Shown piece by piece: positions 30,514 through 64,000 of a DNA stretch of 64,000 nucleotides. The notes beneath the pieces were generated by a model, which had not been told where the DNA came from, made no database searches, and saw only the letters and a list, made by a program, of their open reading frames with translations. Where the stretch lies: the sequence record PP579741.1, one strand, 5' to 3'. The translations under genes were made by a program, and so were the position numbers. The DNA comes from Enterobacter phage KKP_3711. Every line of letters starts with the position of its first letter. Position 1 is the first letter of the stretch.

Positions 30514-31275
30514 TTACTCAGCAGCTTTCTTAGCGTCCAGTTTTTCACGCTTAGCAGCACCATCATAATCAGCGACTTTAACACCACGACGAGACAGCAT
30601 GCTACGAACACCACGCTCAGTAGTACCAACCTTCTCAGCGATTTCTTTAACAGTCAGATTTGCAACATCCAGACCTTCCAGAACATCAGCACGTTCTTTA
30701 GTAGCCAGTTCACGCTGCTTAGGAATAGCGTTAATACGACCTTCACGCATCAGGCTCAGAGCCTTACCACGAACCTGTTTAACTTCACGGTTGAATGCAG
30801 AAGCGATATCTTCTACGAAAGCACCAGAGTTTACAAGATCAATAAACTTAGCTTCTTCTTCCGGAGTATAAGTACGAGGAGCAGCAACTTTTTCAGTTGG
30901 CTTAACCAGATGAGTCAGTTCTTCACTCAGGATCTTACCCTGAACCTGCTTAGCAGAGAACTTGCTACCACAAACAGCCGCAGCGATTTCGGTATAAGTA
31001 TGGGCGTTAGGATTAGCGTCCAGGAACTCTTTCAGTTCAGCAGTATCTTCGTCAGACCATGCAGATTTTGCGGTTTCAGAAGCTTTCTGAACTTCAAATC
31101 CCATCTTACGCAGTTTGGAACCGATTGAACGAGCGGTAACTTCTTTACCAGTTTCTGCACCCATAGCTTCAGCCAGAGCACTTACCTGTTCTTGAGAGAT
31201 TACTGCAACGCCCAGAGCACCAGCTTTTGCGTTCAGAGATTCAGTAGTAGTTTCGTTCCACGTTAATTTAGCCAT
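30514..31275 (-). CDS. DNA-binding protein (T5 D5-like), 253 aa
   Basis: At 253 aa the size matches T5 D5. It has C-terminal HTH-like segments and uses highly expressed-type codons. Confidence 0.5.
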   Translation of the reverse strand: MAKLTWNETTTESLNAKAGALGVAVISQEQVSALAEAMGAETGKEVTARSIGSKLRKMGFEVQKASETAKSAWSDEDTAELKEFLDANPNAHTYTEIAAAVCGSKFSAKQVQGKILSEELTHLVKPTEKVAAPRTYTPEEEAKFIDLVNSGAFVEDIASAFNREVKQVRGKALSLMREGRINAIPKQRELATKERADVLEGLDVANLTVKEIAEKVGTTERGVRSMLSRRGVKVADYDGAAKREKLDAKKAAE

Positions 31276-31283
31276 GTTATTTA

Positions 31284-32039
31284 TTATCCTTTAGTATTTT
31301 CGATTAATTCGTTAATAGAGATGACAGGAATGTCATACTCTAGAGCTTTAAGATATGAAGAGGAGCTACGTTTGCTCTCATCTTCGCAGATCAAATATTT
31401 GACATCTTTTGTCACAGATTTCTTAACTGTGAACCCAAGAGATTCCAAATGTGAACTGGCGTCTGTCCTGTTCTTGAAATCTTTCAGGCTACCAGTAATG
31501 CAAATGATAATACCGTTAGATTGAGAAATTGGTGCCGTAACATTAGTTGACGTTTTACCAAATTTCCAAGGTACTTCCATTATATCCTTGCCAACAAGTG
31601 AATCTTTCCATGATTTAAGATTTTCACCTGCCTTGCCGTCTGCTTTAACATCTTCCAGATTATTAAAGTTAACAGCTAGCTTCCTTGCAGCAACTTCACC
31701 GATCAAAGGAATACCGAGCGATCCTAGGAATTGACCGAATTCCATTTCTCCATGAAGTTTTTCTTCCAGTTCCTTTGCTAGCTTGTCTCCAGTTTTTACA
31801 CCTACTGCTTCATGCAAATCATCCAGAGTTACATAAAACAGTTCAGAAATCCTTACAAGTCCTAGCTTCTCAATAGTAGCTGGGCCAAAGCCTTTTAACT
31901 TCATCTTTTTACAGAAGTTCTCTAATAACTTTGAGGATTGTGCAGGACAGGATTCTGAATTACGACAGAATAGCTGAGCATTTACTAATTCCAACTTACC
32001 ACCACAAGAGGGGCAAGAGGTTGGCATTTCGATTTTCAT
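31284..32039 (-). CDS. ligB: NAD-dependent DNA ligase, subunit B (Zn finger, HhH, BRCT), 251 aa
   Basis: LigA-type zinc finger CPSCGGKLE...CRNSESCPAQ, HhH (GFGPATIEKL) and a C-terminal BRCT (ICITGSL...). Confidence 0.75.
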   Translation of the reverse strand: MKIEMPTSCPSCGGKLELVNAQLFCRNSESCPAQSSKLLENFCKKMKLKGFGPATIEKLGLVRISELFYVTLDDLHEAVGVKTGDKLAKELEEKLHGEMEFGQFLGSLGIPLIGEVAARKLAVNFNNLEDVKADGKAGENLKSWKDSLVGKDIMEVPWKFGKTSTNVTAPISQSNGIIICITGSLKDFKNRTDASSHLESLGFTVKKSVTKDVKYLICEDESKRSSSSYLKALEYDIPVISINELIENTKG

Positions 32040-56881: not shown

Positions 56882-57138
56882 TGAGTAATCAAGAACTTCC
56901 GGGTCACATCGTTCGCATGCAACAGGAATATGAACAGCTTACCGCTCGCACAGGTAAACTTCATAATTTCATGAACAGTGACGCTTACATGGATCTAGAA
57001 CAGGTAGATCGTCGTCTGCTAGAACTGCAATTTGCGTCTATGATTCAGTATCAGTTCTTCTTAGAACAGCGTCTACATTTCGCACTTCAACCTTTTATGC
57101 AGCCTCAAGTTCAGGAATCTGCTGAAGCAGCTAAGTAA
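56881..57138 (+). CDS. hypothetical protein, 85 aa
   Basis: ORF with an ATGA overlap to the upstream gene. Confidence 0.45.
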   Translation: MSNQELPGHIVRMQQEYEQLTARTGKLHNFMNSDAYMDLEQVDRRLLELQFASMIQYQFFLEQRLHFALQPFMQPQVQESAEAAK

Positions 57139-57152
57139 GGTAGGAACCTAGA

Positions 57153-57602
57153 ATGAAGCTAACAGCAATTATCGTTAGCTTCCTCCTAAGCTTCAATGGG
57201 ACTGTAGAAGCAGCTCCAACATTAAAAGAACAAAAACAAATAAATTGCATAGCTACTGCTGTGTACTTCGAAGCTAGAGGAAGCTCTACTGAGGGACAGG
57301 CGGCAGTCGGTCAAGTAATTCGTAACAGAGTAAATTCTGTCGGTTTTCCACAAACATATTGTGGAGTAGTATATCAAAAAGGTCAATTTTCCTGGACAAA
57401 GCATAAGAATCTTAAAATAAAAGATCGTAAGTCTTGGGAAGAGGCTAAAAAGATTGCAGCCGTTACATATTATTTAGGCTGGCCAGACTCTCTAGTAGGA
57501 AATTCCACATACTTCCACAGCGGAAAGAAACCTTACTGGACTAAATCTGTAAGTAAAGTAACAAAAATTGATGGACATAAGTTCTATCAGATAAAATCGT
57601 AG
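57153..57602 (+). CDS. secreted SleB/CwlJ-family cell-wall hydrolase-like protein, 149 aa
   Basis: N-terminal signal peptide MKLTAIIVSFLLSFNGTVEA. The Hydrolase_2 core is present (AVYFEARGSSTEGQAAVGQVIRNRV...FPQTYCGVVYQKGQFS). Confidence 0.55.
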   Translation: MKLTAIIVSFLLSFNGTVEAAPTLKEQKQINCIATAVYFEARGSSTEGQAAVGQVIRNRVNSVGFPQTYCGVVYQKGQFSWTKHKNLKIKDRKSWEEAKKIAAVTYYLGWPDSLVGNSTYFHSGKKPYWTKSVSKVTKIDGHKFYQIKS

Positions 57603-57631
57603 TTGCAAAACATCTTAAAATTCTGTATAAT
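57603..57631 (+). promoter_or_regulatory. T5 early promoter (TTGCAA-N17-TATAAT)
   Basis: -35 at 57603-57608 and -10 at 57626-57631. The downstream sequence TTATTTATAAATTGAGAACGGAG matches the conserved element. Confidence 0.6.
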
Positions 57632-57660
57632 TTATTTATAAATTGAGAACGGAGATATTT

Positions 57661-57825
57661 ATGAAAAAAGTAATTATTGGTGTTGATACTAAAGGCGTTC
57701 GTACTACTAAAGTAGTTGAAGCGGATAATAACTCTATTGTAGCAAACCCAAACAAATTCGGTTTTTCCAAAGTATCTGCTGTAATGACAGAAAAAATGTT
57801 TAATCAAATCAAAGAGGCCGAATAA
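57661..57825 (+). CDS. hypothetical small protein, 54 aa
   Basis: ATG 57661 is preceded by a GGAG SD and is the first gene after promoter 57603. Confidence 0.4.
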   Translation: MKKVIIGVDTKGVRTTKVVEADNNSIVANPNKFGFSKVSAVMTEKMFNQIKEAE

Positions 57826-58268
57826 TGGGCGAAAATATGTTGGAAATCCTGCGTGGTATGCTAGAGCGTGCACGCTATAAAGCTGATTATGACAAAATGA
57901 AAGCTGTTCAAACTGTCATTGGTGATCTTCAGCGAGTAGATAAAGATTATGTTTCTCGTGAGCAACTGGTAGCTTATGTAAAAGCCCAGATGAAAGCTGA
58001 AGAACGTTCTGCTAAGAAAGCCCAGGAATTAAATATTCCTTATGATCCAGATCATGTTTATCTTTCTTTGCTAGCAGATCTAGAATTTGACTTTGCACCT
58101 CAGCAGCTAACAGAAGTACAGATTCGCCAGTATTTTGCTGAATTAACTAAACTGAATCCAAACCTGAACAAAGGTTTGCTGATGAAGGCTATTAAAGAAG
58201 AGTTCCCAGGCCGATATGATGGGAAACTCGCAGCACAAATTGCTGGTGAATTTCATACAAATAAGTAA
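57825..58268 (+). CDS. GatB/YqeY-domain protein, 147 aa
   Basis: The C-terminal half aligns with YqeY: LPKQLSEEELEAIV...GRADGKLVNQIVREKL against the phage APQQLTEVQIRQYF...GRYDGKLAAQIAGEFH. Confidence 0.5.
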   Translation: MGENMLEILRGMLERARYKADYDKMKAVQTVIGDLQRVDKDYVSREQLVAYVKAQMKAEERSAKKAQELNIPYDPDHVYLSLLADLEFDFAPQQLTEVQIRQYFAELTKLNPNLNKGLLMKAIKEEFPGRYDGKLAAQIAGEFHTNK

Positions 58269-58286
58269 CTTAATTTAAAAATGTAG

Positions 58287-58315
58287 TTGCTTAACATCGA
58301 AAAAGTTGATATAAT
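58287..58315 (+). promoter_or_regulatory. T5 early promoter (TTGCTT-N17-TATAAT)
   Basis: -35 at 58287-58292 and -10 at 58310-58315. Confidence 0.6.
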
Positions 58316-58321
58316 AGTTTC

Positions 58322-59222
58322 ATAAATTAAAGAGAACAGCGAGCCGATTACGCTGATTCAATATGGATCTCAGATTGATGGGGTATTGAGTGAATAGAGT
58401 CGGTGAGTTGCAACGAGTAGTAATCATACCTCGAAAGTTGCGTCAAACTTGGGAGCTGTCCCGAAATCTCGTAAACTCTTCTCTTAATTTATTTATGGGG
58501 TGTCGAACTGACTTACGTAATAACACTGCCGTCCTAGTATAATAGGTATTATCATGGCGTAACTGCCGGAAGATGCAGGTTCGAATCCTGCGGTCGGAAA
58601 GAATTGGGTAACTCGGGCTTCTAACGGTGAAGCACTCGCAGACAGTTGCGCGCTGTCAAAACCATGCGGTAGTTGATTCCAGGCTAATCAACCTTAGAAG
58701 GAAAGTGTAACTACGGTTTACTTTGCCGGATTAAAGAAGAACTTTAGGCTTTAGCCTAGATAGTGAAGTTTTTCCTCCATGAGGAGTCGTTTTTCAAGCT
58801 ATCAGACGAAGAGAAAGATGCCCATTTTCTTCTCCCGTATAGACATGGGCATTATATATTGAAAAGCGGCGGTATGTAATTTGATGAGATCCCGTGGAAT
58901 TAGGATAGTGATTGGACTATCCTTATCCAATATATGTTCCAATCGAAAGTGGGAAATGGCGAAAGCCTCAATGGGACAGGTAAGATTATTAGTGAACCGC
59001 GGATAACACTATTAACGCCTGTGAAAATGCTAAGGGAGTCATGACCCTGATTGCGGCCCGATCACCAATGGGTGAATAACCACAAAATAGTCACCTTGAC
59101 TTTAACTGGAAAATATGTATGACAGCAGGGCTTAGACTTAATAAGGGGCGATCCCTCTACCTCCTGTCAATATTTTTAAGATTCTTTACGAGGAATCTTA
59201 AAAATATTAAAGAGGACTAAAT
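58322..59222 (+). ncRNA. ~0.9 kb transcribed stretch without an ORF; candidate structured stable RNA or RNAs, or degenerate tRNA-derived sequence
   Basis: No ORF of 60 aa or more on the + strand across ~900 bp immediately downstream of a consensus promoter. The stretch contains a canonical tRNA T-arm (GCAGG-TTCGAAT-CCTGC at 58564-58580) with no matching acceptor stem. It also has stable hairpins (GATGCCCAT...ATGGGCAT at ~58808-58840 and AAGATTC...GAATCTT at ~59170-59192) and looks GC-richer than its flanks. The next SD-led gene starts at 59223. Confidence 0.35.
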
Positions 59223-59699
59223 ATGAATTTAGGAACAACCTGTGTATTTGACCATATGGAGATGTGCTGCCCTAGAATTTTATATGTAGTGCATTTCACA
59301 GAACAATTGACTCTTGAAGAAGCTCGTACTAAAATGACAGAGATCACAGGTACAGATTTTTCAGAAGGTGCATATTTCAGTGTTGGATTAGATTTTGTAG
59401 ATTGTACACGACTCTACCATCTAATCCAACTCGGTGTAGAATCTGACGAAGTAAAAGAAGGAATTAAAATCCTCAAAAATTATCGTCCACAGATTCTTGA
59501 AAATGTTATCGCAGGTCGCCCTAGTAATCCACTAATGATCCGCATGTATGATGAAGATGCTAGAGATTATGAGTGGCAAAATAGGTTTCATGAACGTATT
59601 AAAGTAGTTATGGATGAAGGTTATGCGGAGCTTCGCAAACGTTCAGAAGAATATTGTGAGAAACGTCGTTTAGAGCGTGAATCTAAGACAACAGACTAA
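59223..59699 (+). CDS. hypothetical protein, 158 aa
   Basis: ORF with an AAGAGGA SD. Its stop abuts the tRNA-Arg gene. Confidence 0.5.
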   Translation: MNLGTTCVFDHMEMCCPRILYVVHFTEQLTLEEARTKMTEITGTDFSEGAYFSVGLDFVDCTRLYHLIQLGVESDEVKEGIKILKNYRPQILENVIAGRPSNPLMIRMYDEDARDYEWQNRFHERIKVVMDEGYAELRKRSEEYCEKRRLERESKTTD

Positions 59700-59774
59700 G
59701 TTCCCTTAGCTCAATGGATAGAGCAGTTGCCTTCTAAGCAATAGATATAGGTTCGATTCCTATAGGGAATACCA
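59700..59774 (+). tRNA. tRNA-Arg (anticodon UCU)
   Basis: Cloverleaf folded by hand. Acceptor GTTCCCT / AGGGAAT, D-arm GCTC-AATGGATA-GAGC, anticodon stem GTTGC / GCAAT with loop CTTCTAA, T-arm ATAGG-TTCGATT-CCTAT, CCA encoded. The D-arm and anticodon loop closely resemble E. coli argU. Confidence 0.8.
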
Positions 59775-59787
59775 ATTTGAGGAAAAT

Positions 59788-59946
59788 ATGGCTAAGTATC
59801 AGTTTACTACTAAAGATGAAAAAACTACAGAAATTGAAGCAGATGTAGTTCGTAACGAAGGTGCTTCTACTGTCTTTTATAAAGAAGGATCTATTATCAA
59901 AATGGTTCCTGTAGAATCAATTGTTAATTTAGAAGTTGTAGAATAA
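59788..59946 (+). CDS. small hypothetical protein, 52 aa (below the ORF-track cutoff)
   Basis: ATG 59788 is preceded by a GAGGAAAAT SD. The ORF reads MAKYQFTTKDEKTTEIEADVVRNEGASTVFYKEGSIIKMVPVESIVNLEVVE and fills the gap between tRNA-Arg and the next gene. Confidence 0.4.
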   Translation: MAKYQFTTKDEKTTEIEADVVRNEGASTVFYKEGSIIKMVPVESIVNLEVVE

Positions 59947-59947
59947 T

Positions 59948-61009
59948 ATGGGTTATTACTTAACTCTGATATTAATCCCTGCATTTGTTGTTGTCTTATG
60001 TGCAAAATGGTTACTCCCACATAAGATCTCTATGAAAGAGTGGGGATTACAATTTCTAGGTTTAGTAGTCTCCACATTATTATGTGCTCTGTTTATTGGT
60101 ATCGCATCTTTTGCGAATACATATGATACAGAGATTCTTAATGGTTATGTAACCAGCAAGAAATCAGTTCATGTATCTTGTGAACATCAATACAAATGTG
60201 GAGAAACATGTTCCACAGATAGTAAAGGAAATCGTAGTTGCGTACCAATTTATTGTGATGAACATGCGTATGATGTTGATTGGGATGTTCATACTACTGT
60301 AGGTACATTTACTATCGATCGTGTTGATCGTCAAGGTTTACGCGAGCCAAAGAGATTCACAGATGTAAACATTGGTGAGTTTGCAGCTACTTCTCATTAT
60401 ACTAAAAACTATCTTCTAGTAGATAAAGGTCGCTTCGACACAGACGAGGCAATTGTAAAGAAATATGAAGGCAAAGTTCCTAAGTATCCTGATACTTTTG
60501 ATTACTATCGTTTTAATCGCGTAGTAAATACAACAGATCGTTCGTTTAATTATCTTAATGTATTTTTAAACAATAATCTGCGAGAGATGGGTGCTAGAAA
60601 GCAATTAAATATTATTGTAGTAGTTACAGAATATAGTGATGACTTCTACAATGCTCTGTATAAAGAATGGAACGGCGGTAAGAAGAACGATGTAATTCTC
60701 ATATATGGGATTGATTCTTCTAATAATATTAAGTGGTTTCGTTCAACATCTTTTGCAGATGGTCAAGATAATCGTGAGCTTCTCGCTAGACTGCGTTTAG
60801 AAACGCATGATCAGCAGCTTTCCCTTAATCTTGTACAAAAGCAGTTAAGTATTATTGATAAGAACTTTACTAGACTTCCTAATGAAACTTTCAGCTATAT
60901 CGATAGTTTCCAGGACACTTCTATCGGTCTTATTTTATTTTGTATGTTCTTTAACATACTAACTTCAATCGGTATTGCATATTATATGTATAAAGAGGAC
61001 GTAGCTTAA
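59948..61009 (+). CDS. membrane protein (N-terminal and C-terminal TM helices, Cys-rich extracytoplasmic segment), 353 aa
   Basis: Hydrophobic helices at the N-terminus (LTLILIPAFVVVLCAKWLL and FLGLVVSTLLCALFIGIASF) and at the C-terminus (IGLILFCMFFNILTSIGIAYYMY). A CEHQYKCGETCSTDSKGNRSCVPIYCDEH cluster is present. Translationally coupled to the LemA-like gene. Confidence 0.5.
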   Translation: MGYYLTLILIPAFVVVLCAKWLLPHKISMKEWGLQFLGLVVSTLLCALFIGIASFANTYDTEILNGYVTSKKSVHVSCEHQYKCGETCSTDSKGNRSCVPIYCDEHAYDVDWDVHTTVGTFTIDRVDRQGLREPKRFTDVNIGEFAATSHYTKNYLLVDKGRFDTDEAIVKKYEGKVPKYPDTFDYYRFNRVVNTTDRSFNYLNVFLNNNLREMGARKQLNIIVVVTEYSDDFYNALYKEWNGGKKNDVILIYGIDSSNNIKWFRSTSFADGQDNRELLARLRLETHDQQLSLNLVQKQLSIIDKNFTRLPNETFSYIDSFQDTSIGLILFCMFFNILTSIGIAYYMYKEDVA

Positions 61010-61581
61010 TGTCAAAAGGTTTGAAAATCACTCTGGTAATTCTTGGTGTATTGTTTGCTCTGGTAGTTGCCGTGGGTGCTACATTGTTTACTAGCTATAT
61101 TTCCGCAGTAAATGATGGTGCGCGTATGGAAGGTAATGTAGTTATGCTGAACCAAGATTCAGAAAACAAACTTTCCAACTATACATTGAAGATTCAAGAA
61201 AAAGTACAGATTCCAGAAATGTATGCCAAAGATCTGAAAGAAGTGATTCGTGCTACATTTGAAGGTCGATATGGTGCTGATGGTTCTAAAGCAGTAATGC
61301 AGTGGATCCAAGAACAAAATATTCAATTTGATTCTAGTCTTTATAAAGATCTGCAAGTAACTATTGAAGCTGGTCGAGATGAATTTCGTATCTCTCAAAC
61401 ATTAAAGTTACAAGCATGTCGTGATTATAAAGTTCAGTTGAATACTTTCTGGAAGGGTATGTGGTTAAAGTTTGCTGGCTATCCTAAAGAAAACTTAGCT
61501 GATGTATGTAAAGTTGTTTCTGACTCTCGTACTTCTGAGATTTTCAAGACTGGTAAACAAGAAGCCTTGAAATTCAATTGA
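61009..61581 (+). CDS. LemA-family membrane protein, 190 aa
   Basis: N-terminal TM helix (ITLVILGVLFALVVAVGATLF) followed by a ~160-aa helical domain. The size and layout are typical of LemA family proteins. Confidence 0.5.
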   Translation: MSKGLKITLVILGVLFALVVAVGATLFTSYISAVNDGARMEGNVVMLNQDSENKLSNYTLKIQEKVQIPEMYAKDLKEVIRATFEGRYGADGSKAVMQWIQEQNIQFDSSLYKDLQVTIEAGRDEFRISQTLKLQACRDYKVQLNTFWKGMWLKFAGYPKENLADVCKVVSDSRTSEIFKTGKQEALKFN

Positions 61582-61659
61582 TACACATGTAACACTTTGC
61601 AGTACGCCTGCGTTTCCTCTGGAAGCGCAGGCAATTAGATGAATTTATATAAAATTTTG

Positions 61660-61689
61660 CTTGCTTTTGCGCGTAAAATTTTATATAAT
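61660..61689 (+). promoter_or_regulatory. T5 early promoter (TTGCTT-N18-TATAAT) driving tRNA-Ser
   Basis: -35 at 61660-61665 and -10 at 61684-61689. The tRNA starts at 61704. Confidence 0.5.
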
Positions 61690-61703
61690 ATTTACTCAAA
61701 TTT

Positions 61704-61795
61704 GGAAGGATTCGCTAATTAGGTAAGCGAGCAGATTGCTAATCTGTCGGCTCTGAAATATGGGTTTATGGGTTCGAGTCCCATTCCTTCCGCCA
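61704..61795 (+). tRNA. tRNA-Ser (anticodon GCU), class II with long variable arm
   Basis: Acceptor GGAAGGA / TCCTTCC, anticodon stem GCAGA / TCTGT with loop TTGCTAA, ~20-nt variable arm, T-arm ATGGG-TTCGAGT-CCCAT, discriminator G and CCA encoded. Confidence 0.8.
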
Positions 61796-61844
61796 CTTTT
61801 AAAGTGTTGTTGCAAAATCTACAATATATTGGTATAGTAGAAAA

Positions 61845-62162
61845 ATGAACTTGCAAAACTTACTTGTGTATCATAAATCTCTAGTAGATTTGCTAGAGAA
61901 GATTGATGAAATGGGTGGTGCTTATGACCTTCTCCCAGAGGGTTATAAAATAGTTATTGATGGAAAGACTATATATCCTGCTTTTCAATTTGTTGATAAT
62001 GATGAAGTGCAGAAAGCAATACGATATGTAGCTAATCATTATGCACTACTAGGAGATCAATCAGGATTGAGTATGTTTAGTTTTTTAATACTGAACTGGG
62101 ACTCTATAAAATCTGGTGATCCAATTAAGATAGCAAATGTGTTAAATCAGTTAAAAATGTAG
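61845..62162 (+). CDS. hypothetical protein, 105 aa
   Basis: ORF with an SD-like AGAAAA sequence upstream. No motif. Confidence 0.45.
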   Translation: MNLQNLLVYHKSLVDLLEKIDEMGGAYDLLPEGYKIVIDGKTIYPAFQFVDNDEVQKAIRYVANHYALLGDQSGLSMFSFLILNWDSIKSGDPIKIANVLNQLKM

Positions 62163-62191
62163 TTGCTAAACACCTAATTTTCAAGTATAAT
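62163..62191 (+). promoter_or_regulatory. T5 early promoter (TTGCTA-N17-TATAAT)
   Basis: -35 at 62163-62168 and -10 at 62186-62191. The downstream sequence ATTTATATAAATTGTTGAGAAGGAAAG matches the conserved element. Confidence 0.6.
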
Positions 62192-62222
62192 ATTTATATA
62201 AATTGTTGAGAAGGAAAGTGAA

Positions 62223-62486
62223 ATGCAAAAAGAACTAACTGGTTTTGAAAAGAATTTTCTTAAGTCCTGGGTTACTTGGGATCAAGATGATTTAACATTC
62301 ATCTTTATTCAAGCAAAACTGACAGATCGTTTATACGCCATCTGTAAGTGCCTGGAAATGCCAGAAGGTGAAATAGATGTTAGTTTTGATTTAGAAAACC
62401 TGATTCTAGAAATCATGGTGTACAAAGCTAATGAAGATGGTAATATGATCTGGAATCAGCAATTGCCAGTAACACTTTCTGTATAA
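62223..62486 (+). CDS. hypothetical protein, 87 aa
   Basis: ORF with a GAAGGAAAG SD. Confidence 0.45.
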   Translation: MQKELTGFEKNFLKSWVTWDQDDLTFIFIQAKLTDRLYAICKCLEMPEGEIDVSFDLENLILEIMVYKANEDGNMIWNQQLPVTLSV

Positions 62487-62505
62487 TAAAAATTTGGGGG
62501 TTTAT

Positions 62506-62582
62506 TCCGTAAGTGGTAGCGGAGCTGACTGTAAATCAGTTACCTTCGGGTTCGGGTGGTTCGACTCCATCAACCCCCACCA
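62506..62582 (+). tRNA. tRNA-Tyr (anticodon GUA) with long variable arm
   Basis: Acceptor GGGGGTT / AACCCCC. The anticodon loop CTGTAAA is identical to E. coli tRNA-Tyr. The variable arm is TTACCTTCGGGTTCGGG, the T-arm GGTTCGACTCC, and CCA is encoded. Confidence 0.75.
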
Positions 62583-62589
62583 AATTAAT

Positions 62590-62666
62590 GCACCTATCGT
62601 CTAAGCGGTTTAGGACATGAGACTTTCAATCTCAAAATCGGAGTTCGATCCTCCGTAGGTGTACCA
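62590..62666 (+). tRNA. tRNA-Glu (anticodon UUC)
   Basis: Acceptor GCACCTA / TAGGTGT. The D-arm TCGTCTAAGCGGTTTAGGACA resembles E. coli tRNA-Glu. Anticodon stem TGAGA / TCTCA with loop CTTTCAA, T-arm GGAGTTCGATCCTCC, CCA encoded. Confidence 0.75.
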
Positions 62667-62672
62667 AATTTT

Positions 62673-62747
62673 AGGAGGGTAGTCTAAAGGTATGACAACG
62701 GCCTTTGACTCCGTTAATAGTAGGTTCGATTCCTCTCCCTCCTGCCA
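62673..62747 (+). tRNA. tRNA-Gln (anticodon UUG)
   Basis: Acceptor AGGAGGG / CCCTCCT. The anticodon stem ACGG(C) / (U)CCGT has a 31-39 C-U mismatch. The loop CTTTGAC has U33 and A37. T-arm GTAGGTTCGATTCCTCTC, discriminator G and CCA encoded. Confidence 0.55.
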
Positions 62748-62790
62748 ATTTTAAAGAACGCCCATCATCACCGCCAGTCGGCAGAAACAG

Positions 62791-62976
62791 ATGGGATATA
62801 TCATGAACTTAGATCAGATATATCGTCTTGGTTTCTATGCTGCTGTATCTGGATGTGAGTCCATTGATGATTGTCCTTATACGGACTTTGAAAGGGAAGA
62901 AAAGAGAGCATGGGTGCTCGGTTTCATCGAAGGGTTACGTCAGTTATGGTCTGATGGAACTAAGCACGATGAGTAA
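62791..62976 (+). CDS. ribosome modulation factor (Rmf)-like small protein, 57-61 aa
   Basis: GFYAAVSGCESIDDCPY...RAWVLGFIEG aligns with E. coli Rmf GYQAGIAGRSKEMCPY...SQWLGGWREA. The true start may be ATG 62803. Confidence 0.5.
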   Translation: MGYIMNLDQIYRLGFYAAVSGCESIDDCPYTDFEREEKRAWVLGFIEGLRQLWSDGTKHDE

Positions 62977-62998
62977 CTTAACTTACTAGGATTAAAAA

Positions 62999-63313
62999 AT
63001 GATTCATATTCTTCGAATTACTGGTAATTATGCAGATGAATTTGATGTTTTCGGTATGCATTCTATTACAGAAGAACAGGCACAGTTTCTAGTAGAGACT
63101 GAAGGCAGATGCTTCACCCATAATAAAGAAGAAATTTATTTTGGGACTAACGAGTGTGTCCAGTTGAATGATCTTCATATTGAACTAGACACTATTACTA
63201 CAGAAGAAGCAGAAATAGTAATGCGAGTACTGAATATTCCAGATTTATCTTATGGTCTAATTGATCTTACAGATATAATCGAAGAAGCAATGGAATCTTC
63301 CACCGATAGCTGA
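62999..63313 (+). CDS. hypothetical acidic protein, 104 aa
   Basis: ORF only. Confidence 0.45.
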   Translation: MIHILRITGNYADEFDVFGMHSITEEQAQFLVETEGRCFTHNKEEIYFGTNECVQLNDLHIELDTITTEEAEIVMRVLNIPDLSYGLIDLTDIIEEAMESSTDS

Positions 63314-63393
63314 GATGGATTAGCGCTTGCCTGAAAAGCTCGAGAGACTGGATCGTTACCAGTTTGGTGGACCACTTACTAACTAGAGGTATT

Positions 63394-63648
63394 ATGAATA
63401 ACCTATTCTTCATTTACTGTACAGATGATTGTCTTAAAAGACGAATATCTAAAGTTTACACATTTAAAACAGGTAAACAATACGTGTACGGTCGTGATGG
63501 TGAAGCAATACCTTTAGTACAACTTTCACGAGATTATATGTTTCTCGAACATTTTAATGAAGAGAACATAGCAAGTGTACATAATTGTCAGAATAGTCTG
63601 ACATGGTGGTACAAGAAACGTAAGAAAGGGATTAAATATGCACGATGA
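63394..63648 (+). CDS. hypothetical protein, ~84 aa
   Basis: ATG 63394 is preceded by an AGAGG SD. The ORF tool's 63364 start has none. Confidence 0.4.
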   Translation: MNNLFFIYCTDDCLKRRISKVYTFKTGKQYVYGRDGEAIPLVQLSRDYMFLEHFNEENIASVHNCQNSLTWWYKKRKKGIKYAR

Positions 63649-63808
63649 ATTCGACGGCTTTATTATCTCTGAAGAAAATTGGGGTGTTTAATATGAAATC
63701 TGGTTGCAATGAAATCGGCTACGGAGATGGTATTCGTAATGCTGAAGATGTAGACTTTTTCGTAGGTTTTGGTGAAGGTCTCTCTTCTACTGAATTAGTT
63801 TAAGTTTC

Positions 63809-63885
63809 TATCTCCCGAGTGTTACTGGACAGCACGCCGGTCTCCAAAACCGTGCAGTCAGGGTTCGAGTCCCTGGGGATTTGCC
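63809..63885 (+). tRNA. tRNA-Trp-like sequence (anticodon CCA) with a defective acceptor stem; possible pseudogene
   Basis: The anticodon arm GCACG-CCGGT-CTCCAAA-ACCGT is nearly identical to E. coli tRNA-Trp (CCGGT-CTCCAAA-ACCGG). D-arm GTGT-TACTGGACA-GCAC, T-arm CAGGG-TTCGAGT-CCCTG and a 3' GCCA are present. However the acceptor 5' ATCTCCC against 3' GGGATTT has two mismatches, and position 8 is G rather than U. Confidence 0.35.
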
Positions 63886-63913
63886 AAATTAATGAATTTA
63901 ATTAAAAACTCAT

Positions 63914-63942
63914 TTGCTTTCTCCCTTAATAATTGATATAAT
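63914..63942 (+). promoter_or_regulatory. T5 early promoter (TTGCTT-N17-TATAAT)
   Basis: -35 at 63914-63919 and -10 at 63937-63942. The downstream sequence ATTTATATTGAAAGTTAGGAGAG follows. Confidence 0.55.
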
Positions 63943-63972
63943 ATTTATATTGAAAGTTAGGAGAGAAACCAA

Positions 63973-64000
63973 ATGACTAAAGAAGAGTTTATAACTCGGC
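63973..64000 (+). CDS. 5' end of a hypothetical early gene (partial, runs off the window)
   Basis: ATG 63973 is preceded by an AGGAGAG SD, 31 nt downstream of promoter 63914. Confidence 0.3.

Follow-up and report, generated by a model that had tools for sequence, protein, structure and literature searches.

The window analysed here is a 64,000-nucleotide stretch of Enterobacter phage KKP_3711 (PP579741.1). In its tRNA region, an early sigma-70 promoter is followed by ~0.9 kb of sequence free of long ORFs, an ORF of 158 amino acids without a Pfam or PHROG family, and tRNA-Arg(UCU) (Table 1). The promoter had been recognized as a consensus promoter in the original prediction, and it aligns with 'promoter P 16-17' annotated at the same position in T5; the sequence through TATAATAGnTTCATAAATT resembles T5 early promoters. 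A generic sigma-70 scan did not report it because TTGCTT agrees with TTGACA at 3 of 6 positions. An internal promoter at TTGACTT(T/A)AACTGGAA was considered and rejected, as it has no conserved -10 element and the scan reports none. Rad, the anti-retron protein, was likewise rejected as the neighbouring ORF, being a primase-like protein encoded elsewhere in the region.

Table 1. Positions of the RNAX-type RNA, its structural elements and the flanking genes in the window.
Feature	Position	Strand	Details
Upstream gene	57825-58268		PHROG 1460 'tRNA amidotransferase'; weak YqeY match (E = 0.006, below Pfam cut-off)
Early sigma-70 promoter	58287-58315	+	TTGCTT 58287-58292, 17-nt spacer, TATAAT 58310-58315; read from sequence
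Whole RNAX-type non-coding RNA	58322-59209	+	~888 nt, inferred start to terminal-hairpin end; homology to T5/DT57C rnaX
Optional 5' module	58322-58492	+	closed by P0 (58322-30/58484-92, 58332-36/58479-83)
Hairpin CAGCG/CGCUG	58337-58354	+	inside optional 5' module
P1, 5' strand	58493-58498	+	pairs with 59080-59085, closing ~590-nt core
Junction P1-P2 GGUGUCGAA	58499-58507	+	nearly invariant; invariant alignment columns
P2, 5' strand	58508-58521	+	CUGA-C-UUAC-G-UAAU; pairs with 58603-58616
Junction AACACU	58522-58527	+	invariant; with AAGA 58599-58602 forms internal loop beneath tRNA-like domain
tRNA-like domain	58528-58599	+	Rfam tRNA model, 30.1 bits (gathering score 29)
Acceptor of tRNA-like domain	58528-34/58592-98	+	5 of 7 positions paired in the window
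D arm	58537-40/58549-52	+	
Anticodon-like arm	58555-58/58565-68	+	6-nt loop
T arm	58575-79/58587-91	+	loop UUCGAAU
P2, 3' strand	58603-58616	+	AUUG-G-GUAA-C-UCGG
Hairpin P3 GCUUC/GAAGC	58617-58633	+	100% paired; 3 of 5 pairs changed on both sides
Middle module	58634-58945	+	58672-78/58686-92, 58702-07/58720-24, 58736-45/58765-74, 58746-49/58754-57, 58775-78/58783-86
Sub-module	58806-58945	+	common to some relatives only; adds hairpin 58818-25/58845-52
AGUGGGAAA motif, then variable hairpin	58948-58967	+	window hairpin GGC-GAAA-GCC, 58958-67
Loop B hairpin	58976-59022	+	outer stem 58976-80/59018-22, inner stem 58990-94/59007-11
Loop B AACCGCGGAUAA	58995-59006	+	palindrome CCGCGG at 58997-59002
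Loop A hairpin GGG-AGUCAUGA-CCC	59034-59047	+	loop invariant, self-complementary
Variable hairpin UCACC/GGUGA	59062-59075	+	5' of AUAACCAC motif
Conserved AUAACCAC	59076-59085	+	59080-59085 is the P1 3' strand
Hairpin AGUCA-CCU-UGACU	59089-59101	+	conserved; 93% paired, no pair changed on both sides
Conserved single strand UUAACUGGAAAAUA	59102-59115	+	
3' domain	59121-59168	+	GACAG/CUGUC 59121-25/59164-68; AGG/CCU 59127-29/59160-62; predicted from window sequence
3' domain hairpins	59131-45; 59146-55	+	CUUAA loop; GGG-CGAU-CCC; predicted from window sequence
Terminal hairpin	59169-59208	+	18 bp, UACG loop; probable 3' protective end
SD AAGAGG	59210-15	+	precedes ATG 59223
158-aa ORF	59223-59699	+	between RNAX-type RNA and tRNA-Arg(UCU)
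tRNA-Arg(UCU)	59700-59774	+	3' of the 158-aa ORF

From the promoter spacing, and from helix P0, which pairs from that base on, we infer A58322 to be the transcription start. The same rules for placing the ends give 720 nt for the T5 RNA and 637 nt for that of DT57C, versus 719 and 636 nt annotated. The terminator scan found no terminator-like site separating the RNA, the 158-aa ORF and tRNA-Arg(UCU), and the three presumably share one transcript. The + strand has two weak terminator-like sites (58772-86 and 58834-49), both within the RNA. The former falls in a segment swapped for another module in other lineages, where stem and U-run are not kept, and the latter in the sub-module, which is absent from many members.

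No + strand ORF of at least 60 aa was found between 58316 and 59222 (the longest has 50 aa and a GTG start), and the next SD-led gene is the one starting at 59223, both as first noted. That one or more short ORFs encode the functional product here is most improbable. ORFs of 27-50 aa are present in the window, and tiny hypothetical proteins are annotated at this place in several GenBank records, but no small-protein ORF that had been missed proved to be conserved in position, frame or start across the members, and one of them (UTK0009) has none of at least 30 aa. The recurrent reading 'VEDVGSNP..' is the translated T arm, indels are not multiples of three, and substitutions preserve base pairs.

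Homologues of T5 rnaX

By blastn, the region is 77-78% identical to DT57C and T5 over ~330 nt, with further conserved blocks, and the hit falls under the feature 'rnaX: RNAX'. The homologous interval is annotated as misc_RNA rnaX, 'stable RNA with unknown functions', in both T5 (AY543070, 40848-41566) and DT57C (KM979354, 30992-31627). The core is 72-78% identical, all core motifs are common to the three phages, and they also have in common the promoter type, the terminal hairpin and the gene order on one strand (T5.081-like gene, promoter, RNA, tRNA-Arg(UCU)). The stretch is thus very likely the orthologue of T5 rnaX, a conserved large structured non-coding RNA, which agrees with the original suggestion of a structured stable RNA of the kind known from the T5 tRNA region: the interval is annotated rnaX in T5 and DT57C, and its covariation shows that an RNA structure is conserved.

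The window RNA differs from its two annotated counterparts in several respects. It is ~888 nt long versus 719 and 636 nt; T5 has neither its ~140-nt 5' module nor the ~140-nt sub-module 58806-58945; the variable hairpin after AGUGGGAAA and the version of the 3' domain are other ones; loop B reads CCGCGG in place of CGCGCG or UCGCGA; and the 158-aa ORF separates the RNA from tRNA-Arg.

A blastn match to the region was obtained in 528 phage records, and about 45 distinct homologues, all from Demerecviridae, were used for the comparison of structures. RNAs of this type measure 0.64-1.03 kb and are kept across Tequintavirus, Epseptimavirus, Sugarlandvirus, Myunavirus and the unassigned phage AAS21, while a covariance model found the P2/P3 core in Priunavirus PR1 (62.9 bits). 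Structural homologues are confirmed in five T5-like phage genera plus AAS21, with core motifs that stay the same from Escherichia phages through to those of Pectobacterium. When bacterial and archaeal genomes were scanned, the pattern matched three times, which equals chance expectation (the best match scored 12.7 bits by the covariance model), and in IMG/VR and metagenomes the scans gave T5-like phage contigs only, apart from chance matches to an initial, shorter pattern. Genome annotations label parts of the RNA as tRNA-Sec, tRNA-Ser, tRNA-Leu, tRNA-Pro or tiny hypothetical proteins.

The status of T5 RNAX as a 'stable RNA' comes from its GenBank annotation and the title of Ksenzenko et al. 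1982. In the portions of the literature on RNAX, T5 stable RNAs and T5 non-coding RNA that were available to the search, the 1982 paper appeared only as a reference-list citation, and neither a study of this RNA nor a published structure or function for T5 RNAX was found. The GenBank entry carries no structure model, and Rfam has no family for this RNA.

The RNA always lies 5' of tRNA-Arg(UCU) in the same orientation. Together with the lack of an intervening terminator-like site and, in T5, a terminal hairpin that stops 6-7 nt short of the tRNA, this would suit a cis-acting leader whose sole purpose is the expression, processing or stability of tRNA-Arg(UCU) and, where present, of the small ORF, and which has no function once cleaved. 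We consider such a leader quite improbable: a closed multi-domain fold of 0.64-1.03 kb with invariant loops far exceeds the need of any known tRNA leader, in several phages the RNA is unchanged with one or two protein genes separating it from the tRNA, and other tRNAs in the cluster have no such leader.

A conserved modular secondary structure

Alignment of the interval with its homologues, those of T5 and DT57C among them as had been proposed at the outset, brought out compensatory base changes and no conserved ORF. The RNA has a large, modular and conserved structure, and this structure belongs to the + strand transcript because many of its G-U pairs would turn into A-C mismatches in the complement. 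The minimum free energy (MFE) of the 891-nt transcript is -257.9 kcal/mol (z = -3.57 versus 20 shuffles). Averaged single-sequence base-pair probabilities recovered local hairpins only and missed the long-range helices. An all-against-all scan of column pairs yielded many spurious 4-bp candidates, and its pairs were kept only if mutually consistent and separately confirmed.

Helix P0, which closes the optional 5' module, is present in the MFE fold; by eye, insertions and deletions match between its two strands, and one U-A pair changes to U-G (AAS21, 26175I, phiR201). In T5 and DT57C the module is shrunk to a small hairpin. P1 is 92% paired in 32 sequences, with 3 of 6 pairs changed on both sides (for example, ACGG/CCGU in My1 versus GUGG/CCAC in T5), and none of 500 shuffles matched it. 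The pairing GGGGUG/CACCUU proposed by RNAalifold was dropped in favour of P1, since My1 and AAS21 have no CACC and yet keep P1 by compensatory changes. In P2, 99.6% of the cells of its 12 pairs are paired, 7 pairs are changed on both sides, and both 1x1 mismatches (C-C and G-G) are conserved. Taken together, P2, the stems of the tRNA-like domain and P3 comprise 37 pairs, 90.8% paired and 21 of them changed on both sides; no shuffle out of 500 matched this, and slid controls fell to 32-43%. The middle module contains 42 pairs in RNAalifold on 18 distinct sequences (99.6% paired, 7 changed on both sides), and other phages carry a different module in its position.

A T arm, GCAGG-TTCGAAT-CCTGC, had been placed at 58564-58580 and described as an orphan for which no acceptor stem could be paired. 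Its true place is 58575-58591, 11 nt further on, and acceptor, D and anticodon-like arms complete the cloverleaf, with covariation in all four stems. Thus, the idea of a tRNA-like element was correct for these 72 nt and failed for the rest of the ~890 nt. The scanners disagreed: the Rfam tRNA model matched, at a marginal score (30.1 bits versus 31-73 bits for the true tRNAs of the window), whereas ARAGORN called no tRNA or tmRNA in the interval. With permissive thresholds, whether the interval or the surrounding 7 kb was scanned, the tRNA model was the sole accepted Rfam match; miRNA-like hits (terminal hairpin) and hits to potC (hairpin 58818-52) and RsaD were far below thresholds and rejected as chance. 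A tmRNA-like element, another early suggestion, is unsupported, neither ARAGORN nor Rfam reporting a tmRNA; moreover, the domain is contiguous and internal, unlike that of tmRNA, which is built from both RNA ends.

The cloverleaf follows the Rfam tRNA family in its canonical T loop (UUCGAAU), in the GG of its D loop and in the covariation of its acceptor stem. It differs from that family in the G-A and U-U mismatches of its acceptor stem, in having no CCA and probably no free 3' end, and in being dispensable in some members: in Sepoy-type phages and PR1 a plain hairpin replaces it, and the remaining RNA, including the AACACU junction, is retained. No seven-nucleotide anticodon loop with a conserved anticodon was found, the relatives having loops of 3-6 nt or a long insertion; where ARAGORN assigns 'anticodons' in different phages, they are tca, act, cga, aga, tag or none. 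No CCA is encoded, and the domain probably stays embedded in the RNA, since its invariant flanks pair with each other over 12 bp in P2. The tRNA-like tip is a peripheral domain that can be exchanged, and not a decoding tRNA. The T-loop of tRNA, UUCGAA, is a palindrome too and has no self-association role, which weighs against arguing from palindromes. Elsewhere, tRNA-like domains inside larger RNAs occur in bacterial Y RNAs and in the MALAT1 mascRNA.

Decayed tRNA genes had also been considered, and with mobile-element scars they might make up evolutionary debris, transcribed but functionless. Debris would account for a single degenerate tRNA-like sequence called inconsistently by tRNA finders, for the mosaic character of a region whose modules come and go (T5 has a duplication) and for the homing endonuclease genes close by in relatives. 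Covariation already contradicts it, however, and we regard it as very unlikely: conservation and covariation reach far beyond the single tRNA-like domain, at least six helices outside it are maintained by compensatory changes, and the core motifs do not vary between Escherichia and Pectobacterium phages. The DNA of the RNA region is 72-94% identical versus 48-57% amino acid identity for the adjacent protein, the relatives compared not all being the same phages.

The two hairpins first noted at ~58808-58840 and ~59170-59192 were found near both places, at 58818-25/58845-52 (8 bp) and 59169-86/59191-59208 (18 bp). The latter, the terminal hairpin, is predicted in the MFE fold and is 95.3% paired, with 7 of 18 pairs changed on both sides by the stricter count and no match in 500 shuffles. 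It lies 6-7 nt 5' of tRNA-Arg in T5 and DT57C. The hairpin is A+U-rich, not G+C-rich, and is not a terminator, because no U-run follows it. The loop A stem (90.6% paired) and AGG/CCU (81% paired) were likewise matched by none of 500 shuffles, and both controls, shuffles and slides, bear out these two helices together with P1 and the terminal hairpin.

Column-wise counts failed for the variable hairpins and for GACAG/CUGUC because lineages carry non-homologous versions. The AGUGGGAAA motif is kept in nearly all members, and the hairpin after it differs but, by eye, remains self-complementary (UGGCAU/AUGCCA, UGACAU/AUGUCA, UCACGU/UCGUGA), while column-wise counts fail there through misalignment. 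Site 59062-59075 is similar, with a hairpin of differing sequence in every lineage by eye and uninformative column-wise counts. The GACAG/CUGUC helix is unsupported by column counts, as T5-type sequences bear a different version of it.

Palindromic loops and possible self-association

Two hairpin loops in the 3' part are self-complementary. The self-complementary sequence of loop A is UCAUGA, or GUCAUGAC with the closing C counted. Region 59089-59115 carries the same half-sites, and from the sequences loop A could instead pair in cis with the AGUCA/UGACU hairpin, for which My1 shows a possible compensatory change. Loop B varies by lineage, reading CCGCGG, UCGCGA, CGCGCG, CUCGAG, UCCGCGGA, GUGCGCAC or GUGCAC, and so stays palindromic through seven distinct sequences of 6-8 nt; its palindromes were compared with composition-preserving shuffles. 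Three lineages have CGCG alone in loop B, which counts against self-association. Pairing of loop B in cis with an ACGCGG/AUGCGG segment was rejected, since the CUCGAG lineage cannot form it.

As loop B changes in sequence between lineages and nevertheless remains palindromic, an RNA-RNA self-association is suggested. We tentatively propose that loops A (UCAUGA) and B (CCGCGG) might pair between copies of the RNA, giving a dimer or a larger RNA-only assembly like those of GOLLD and ROOL. Two distinct self-complementary loops per molecule would provide two kinds of symmetric RNA-RNA contact, which would fit a closed dihedral ring or cage, or a filament, with tRNA-shaped arms.

The palindromes could instead be read at the level of DNA, as part of a cluster of protein-binding sites, of a signal for replication or nicking, or of a hotspot of recombination. 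CCGCGG and GTCATGAC could bind dimeric proteins, and T5 nick sites contain GCGC according to an annotation note. Such an element is exceedingly unlikely, however: G-U pairs, which maintain the helices, are specific to one strand and meaningless in duplex DNA; a loop B that varies and stays self-complementary behaves in the opposite way to a conserved site for a protein; GCGC is absent from most loop B variants; and a strong promoter lies immediately upstream.

Proposed role and relation to other phage RNAs

In the model that we propose, host RNA polymerase would make an RNA of ~890 nt early in infection from the T5-type promoter, at the head of a transcript running on into the small ORF and tRNA-Arg(UCU). 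P0 closes the optional 5' module and P1 the core, the P2 arm bears the tRNA-shaped domain at its tip, and many hairpins display invariant loops and junctions. The 18-bp hairpin would form the 3' end and, with the paired 5' end, would probably shield the RNA and let it build up as the 'stable RNA' of T5; in T5, cleavage by RNase P at the 5' end of tRNA-Arg would release RNAX. Since the T5 tRNA region is an anti-defence island, the most likely area for the role of this RNA is tRNA or translation biology, or counter-defence.

In a rival reading, the RNA would act as a tRNA mimic, displaying a tRNA-shaped domain that soaks up a tRNA-binding factor, the rest being a stabilizing scaffold; the target could be, for example, a host tRNA-cleaving defence nuclease, an enzyme of tRNA modification or processing, or the YqeY-like protein encoded upstream. 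The conserved and covarying T arm, D arm and acceptor stem are consistent with a decoy, as are the PHROG assignment and weak YqeY match of the upstream gene and the anti-defence setting, in which phage tRNAs counter retron and PARIS nucleases. However, the anticodon arm, the target of anticodon nucleases, is the least conserved part, Sepoy-type phages and PR1 have a plain hairpin in place of the whole domain and keep the remaining RNA, the invariant nucleotides lie mostly outside it, and in the Sugarlandvirus records KpGranit and Sugarland the YqeY-like gene does not adjoin the RNA. We therefore consider a decoy unlikely.

Stable RNAs other than tRNAs have a precedent in phage T4, whose RNAs C and D (species 1 and 2), about 120-140 nt long, are encoded in the tRNA gene cluster and co-transcribed with the tRNAs. 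By description, the window RNA, as a putatively stable non-tRNA RNA encoded among tRNA genes, resembles these RNAs of a lytic coliphage; neither is known to have a tRNA domain within a larger fold. In GOLLD and ROOL, large RNAs of phages and prophages found near tRNA islands, kissing loops between molecules bring about assembly; GOLLD is conserved in its 3' part and variable in its 5' part, and its linker sometimes contains a tRNA (PMC12286853). The window RNA is likewise phage-encoded, several hundred nucleotides long, elaborate and conserved in secondary structure and adjacent to tRNA genes, and it too appears, from sequence comparison, to have a conserved 3' and a variable 5' part. In contrast, its class is hosted by enterobacterial lytic phages, and its multimer is predicted from palindromic loops. 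The Rfam models of GOLLD and ROOL gave no hit up to E = 10 in 58280-59230 or in 57000-64000, so that the likeness is an analogy without sign of common descent. It is possible, although doubtful, that RNAX-type RNAs add a third class to the self-assembling 'ornate' phage RNAs, unrelated to these two.

Large RNAs this structurally conserved usually have a sophisticated biochemical activity. A covariance model of the RNAX family would fix the misannotated tRNAs and tiny hypothetical proteins. T5 has served as a model phage for seventy years and, if the self-assembly is true, RNAX would be a coliphage counterpart of the GOLLD and ROOL cages, testable by ordinary E. coli and T5 genetics.

The RNA behind the early promoter and its homologues

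An early promoter had been placed ahead of this stretch in the original prediction, and TTGCTT and TATAAT hexamers with a 17-nt spacer were found at that position. The promoter was not listed by a generic consensus scan, since TTGCTT matches TTGACA at just three positions; the aligned position of T5 carries the annotation 'promoter P 16-17'. As also proposed, the + strand between the promoter and the SD-led start at 59223 has no ORF that reaches 60 aa; the longest has 50 aa and a GTG start.

By blastn, 528 phage records matched this interval. Nearly all among the matches listed were T5-like phages, and every record opened belonged to Demerecviridae. The DT57C match lies under a misc_RNA annotated as 'rnaX: RNAX, stable RNA with unknown functions' (30992-31627), and rnaX is also annotated in T5 (AY543070, 40848-41566), between 'promoter P 16-17' and tRNA-Arg. 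The order in the window (a T5.081-like gene, the promoter, the ORF-free stretch and tRNA-Arg(UCU) at 59700) is that of T5 and DT57C, with a 158-aa ORF ahead of the window's tRNA-Arg as the sole difference. If the RNA is taken to begin 7 nt past the -10 element and to finish with the terminal hairpin, it would measure 720 nt in T5 and 637 nt in DT57C (annotated: 719 and 636), ~888 nt in the window and up to ~1,030 nt in Yersinia phage phiR2-01. On the grounds of homology and synteny, we identify the window RNA as a member of the T5 RNAX family and the orthologue of the annotated T5 RNA. Compared with DT57C (L003), T5 rnaX (L005) carries an insertion of ~83 nt between 23-nt direct repeats, AGTCACCTTGAC(T/A)TAAACTGGAA, which accounts for its length of 719 nt where DT57C has 636; the insertion is shared by L063, a relative from a metagenome. 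In the literature on T5 RNAX we found no paper analysing it, the only trace being a citation of Ksenzenko et al.

Architecture and covariation

We gathered ~75 homologous loci, corresponding to 45 distinct sequences, from IMG/VR, metagenomes and GenBank phages of several genera (Tequintavirus, Epseptimavirus, Klebsiella Sugarlandvirus, Pantoea phage AAS21 and Pectobacterium phage My1). In their alignments, invariant single-stranded motifs alternate with helices that vary in sequence yet stay complementary, and entire modules are present, absent or swapped between homologues. The T5 and DT57C RNAs, for instance, do not have the 5' module closed by helix P0 in the window.

Features of the window RNA and of its surroundings, in 5' to 3' order
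Feature	Position	Strand	Remarks
YqeY-like flanking gene	57825-58268	+	
Early promoter	TTGCTT 58287-58292; TATAAT 58310-58315	+	17-nt spacer; read from sequence
Putative transcript start	~58322	+	First bases paired in P0
P0	58322-36 with 58479-92	+	Closes optional 5' module
P1	58493-98 with 59080-85	+	Directly after P0; closes ~590-nt core
Junction GGUGUCGAA	Inside core, ahead of P2	+	Invariant
P2	After GGUGUCGAA	+	Long arm; two conserved 1x1 mismatches
Internal loop AACACU + AAGA	Top of P2	+	Invariant; tRNA-like domain at the arm's tip
tRNA-like domain	58528-58599	+	
P3 hairpin, then middle module	After P2 arm	+	Module in at least two unrelated versions
Hairpin CUCC-AUGA-GGAG	58775-58786	+	Small, conserved; followed by UCGUUUUUC
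Motif AGUGGGAAA and variable hairpin	After middle module	+	
Loop B hairpin, then loop A hairpin GGG-AGUCAUGA-CCC	After AGUGGGAAA hairpin	+	Loop A GUCA/UGAC at 59037-59044
Second variable hairpin, then AUAACCAC	After loop A	+	AUAACCAC returns to P1
AGUCA-CCU-UGACU, conserved strand UUAACUGGAAAAUA, 3' domain	Beyond P1	+	AGUCA-CCU-UGACU at 59089-59101
Terminal hairpin	59169-59208	+	18 bp, UACG loop; end of the RNA
158-aa ORF	59223-59699	+	SD AAGAGG
353-aa protein	59948-61009	+	Downstream of tRNA-Arg
Rfam tRNA model match	63300-63371	+	34.3 bits, over threshold

The structure of the first conserved block (P2, the four stems of the tRNA-like domain and P3) was tested on an alignment of 39 sequences. 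Of its 37 pairs, 21 changed on both sides, with 90.8% of cells paired; none of 500 shuffles matched these values, and pairing fell to 32-43% when partners were slid by 1-3 columns. P2 by itself was 99.6% paired, with compensatory changes in 7 of 12 pairs. Since U-G and G-U pairs are frequent, the structure is that of the + strand transcript. The helices of the 3' half were counted in 32 sequences. Pairing was 92% in P1 and 95% in the terminal hairpin, with three and seven compensatory pairs, respectively. The AGG/CCU helix and the stem of loop A also outscored all shuffles, and AGUCA/UGACU was conserved without variation. The same counts did not support a GACAG/CUGUC helix by covariation, because versions of the 3' domain differ between lineages. 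For the middle module, RNAalifold gave 42 pairs, 99.6% paired and 7 compensatory. The fold of the whole transcript had z = -3.57 versus shuffles, and its minimum-energy form includes P0, P2, the acceptor and T stems, P3 and the terminal hairpin.

A conserved reading frame was sought across the RNAX homologues and none was found; one member is without any ORF of at least 30 aa. The YqeY-like protein encoded upstream shares only 48-57% of its amino acids with homologues in other T5-like phages, versus 72-94% nucleotide identity of the RNA region (58322-59209) to relatives that are partly other phages than in the protein comparison, so the non-coding stretch appears better conserved than its coding neighbour.

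The finding is real, and its main interpretation as a structured stable RNA was right: homology to T5 RNAX and covariation bear it out, with stability taken from the T5 and DT57C annotation. The two hairpins originally noticed correspond to 58818-25/58845-52 and to the terminal hairpin. In the window the latter adjoins the SD of the following ORF, and in T5 it stops 6-7 nt short of tRNA-Arg. The small hairpin that precedes UCGUUUUUC was called terminator-like by a scan; the CCUCC of its 5' arm exactly matches the 16S rRNA anti-Shine-Dalgarno sequence. Other lineages carry a different module at this segment, where the stem and U-run are not kept.

The tRNA-like domain and the self-complementary loops

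The T-arm GCAGG-UUCGAAU-CCUGC exists as predicted, but at 58575-58591, 11 nt from where it had been placed, and it is not an orphan: the Rfam tRNA model aligns a full cloverleaf around it (30.1 bits versus a gathering score of 29). ARAGORN, the other scanner applied to the interval, makes no tRNA call. The acceptor, D and T stems covary and the T loop is canonical. No part of the RNA is less conserved than the anticodon arm, whose loop has 6 nt in the window and T5, 3 nt in My1 and a long insertion in the Klebsiella phages. ARAGORN labels for the domain change from phage to phage (SeC, Ser, Leu, 'undetermined'), which together with the variable arm explains the contradictory tRNA annotations in GenBank. 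There the domain appears as tRNA-Sec, tRNA-OTHER, tRNA-Ser, tRNA-Leu, tRNA-Pro or tRNA-Undet (e.g. MK907267, MT074464, JX195166, MW713578, OY979429), and the remainder of the RNA is often tiled with tiny 'hypothetical proteins'; these labels are probably systematic mis-annotations.

A functional tRNA was rejected: a 7-nt anticodon loop and a conserved anticodon are missing, and the flanks pair with each other. Nor is the window RNA a tmRNA. Sepoy-type phages have a plain hairpin in place of the entire domain. In Providencia phage PR1, the covariance model of the first block matches the P2/P3 core (62.9 bits, E ~2e-15), again with a short hairpin where the domain is expected. These replacements and the variable anticodon arm mark an exchangeable tip, not a decoding tRNA. 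That RNAX acts as a simple anticodon-nuclease decoy is unlikely, given an unconserved anticodon arm on a dispensable tip. In PR1 (L094, KY363465), a distant relative, the core sits at the 3' end of an ORF-free stretch (~1990-2720) in which we found no loop A, AACCAC motif or terminal hairpin, and a T-arm-like GAGAGGTTCGATTCCTCC lies ~230 nt upstream; the PR1 RNA seems rearranged or merely partly homologous.

Two further loops are self-complementary. Loop A is invariant and holds UCAUGA, or GUCAUGAC with the closing C included. Loop B, the more informative of the two, presents CCGCGG at the hairpin tip in the window. T5 has CGCGCG there and most relatives UCGCGA; the 26175I/bobsandoy/SB13 lineage has CUCGAG, the Klebsiella phages UCCGCGGA, ende and phiR2-01 GUGCGCAC, and My1 GUGCAC, and three lineages keep only CGCG. 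CCGCGG and CUCGAG differ symmetrically (C-G to U-A at positions 2/5, G-C to C-G at positions 3/4). Because a six-base loop palindrome cannot pair within itself, the simplest reading of loop B is that two RNA molecules pair with each other through it. Shuffles of individual loops gave modest values (0.0075-0.29 for 6-8-nt loop B variants) and the T loop UUCGAA is likewise palindromic, so self-pairing is something we infer rather than demonstrate. A cis partner for loop B was ruled out, as the CUCGAG lineage is unable to form the pairing.

Loop A may pair in cis with AGUCA/UGACU. The two elements have common half-sites in the window. In My1 (L053), the loop A sequence GUCAUGC has its exact reverse complement, GCAUGAC, in the hairpin region, which may be a compensatory change that preserves a cis pseudoknot. 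AAS21 retains loop A in the absence of such a partner. Closed dihedral assemblies use two different symmetric contacts per molecule.

Known RNA families, neighbouring genes and possible roles

GOLLD and ROOL RNAs form closed dihedral cages of this kind through kissing loops, and GOLLD RNAs at times carry a tRNA in a variable linker (PMC12286853), much like the exchangeable tip described here. The window RNA further resembles both in size, ornate conserved structure, phage origin and tRNA-island position, and in having modules that vary, a tRNA-like element within the fold and loops that are candidates for intermolecular contact. It belongs to neither GOLLD nor ROOL, nor to any other Rfam family, even with E allowed up to 10. 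Among 185,579 bacterial and archaeal genomes scanned, three matched the search pattern, a number within chance expectation, and the covariance model gave the best of these 12.7 bits. RNAX-type RNA thus appears confined to Demerecviridae.

The window's 158-aa ORF, which sits between the terminal hairpin and tRNA-Arg and has its stop codon next to the tRNA, matched no Pfam or PHROG family. A hypothetical-protein ORF, likened by position, is found there in 26175I, bobsandoy, ende, Ace and AAS21, and T5 and DT57C have none. In phiR2-01 (L050, 2594-3129), the ~530 nt between terminal hairpin and tRNA-Arg have no annotated gene and by eye resemble a T5orf172/GIY-YIG-type ORF; My1 has an annotated ORF there. 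These two cases suggest that the junction between the RNA and tRNA-Arg is a target of mobile-element insertions. Downstream of tRNA-Arg, the 353-aa protein belongs to PHROG 2087 (unknown function) and differs from the SPFH/band-7 protein that T5 has there. The closest relative of the 353-aa protein comes from Pantoea phage AAS21 (61.5%), and many jumbo and Vi1-like phages encode it too. The Rfam tRNA model match beyond it, where ARAGORN finds no tRNA, may be a further atypical or degenerate tRNA of the cluster.

The upstream flanking gene falls in PHROG 1460 ('tRNA amidotransferase') with a sub-threshold YqeY match, which hints at a tRNA-binding partner; in Klebsiella phages the YqeY-like gene is not adjacent to the RNA. 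Since the tRNA region of T5 acts as an anti-defence island, it is plausible that RNAX serves counter-defence or the biology of tRNAs and translation. T5 RNAX was already known as an annotated, uncharacterised entity; what is new is the evidence that RNAs of its kind form a conserved family of giant structured RNAs that carry a tRNA-like arm and loops through which they probably self-associate.
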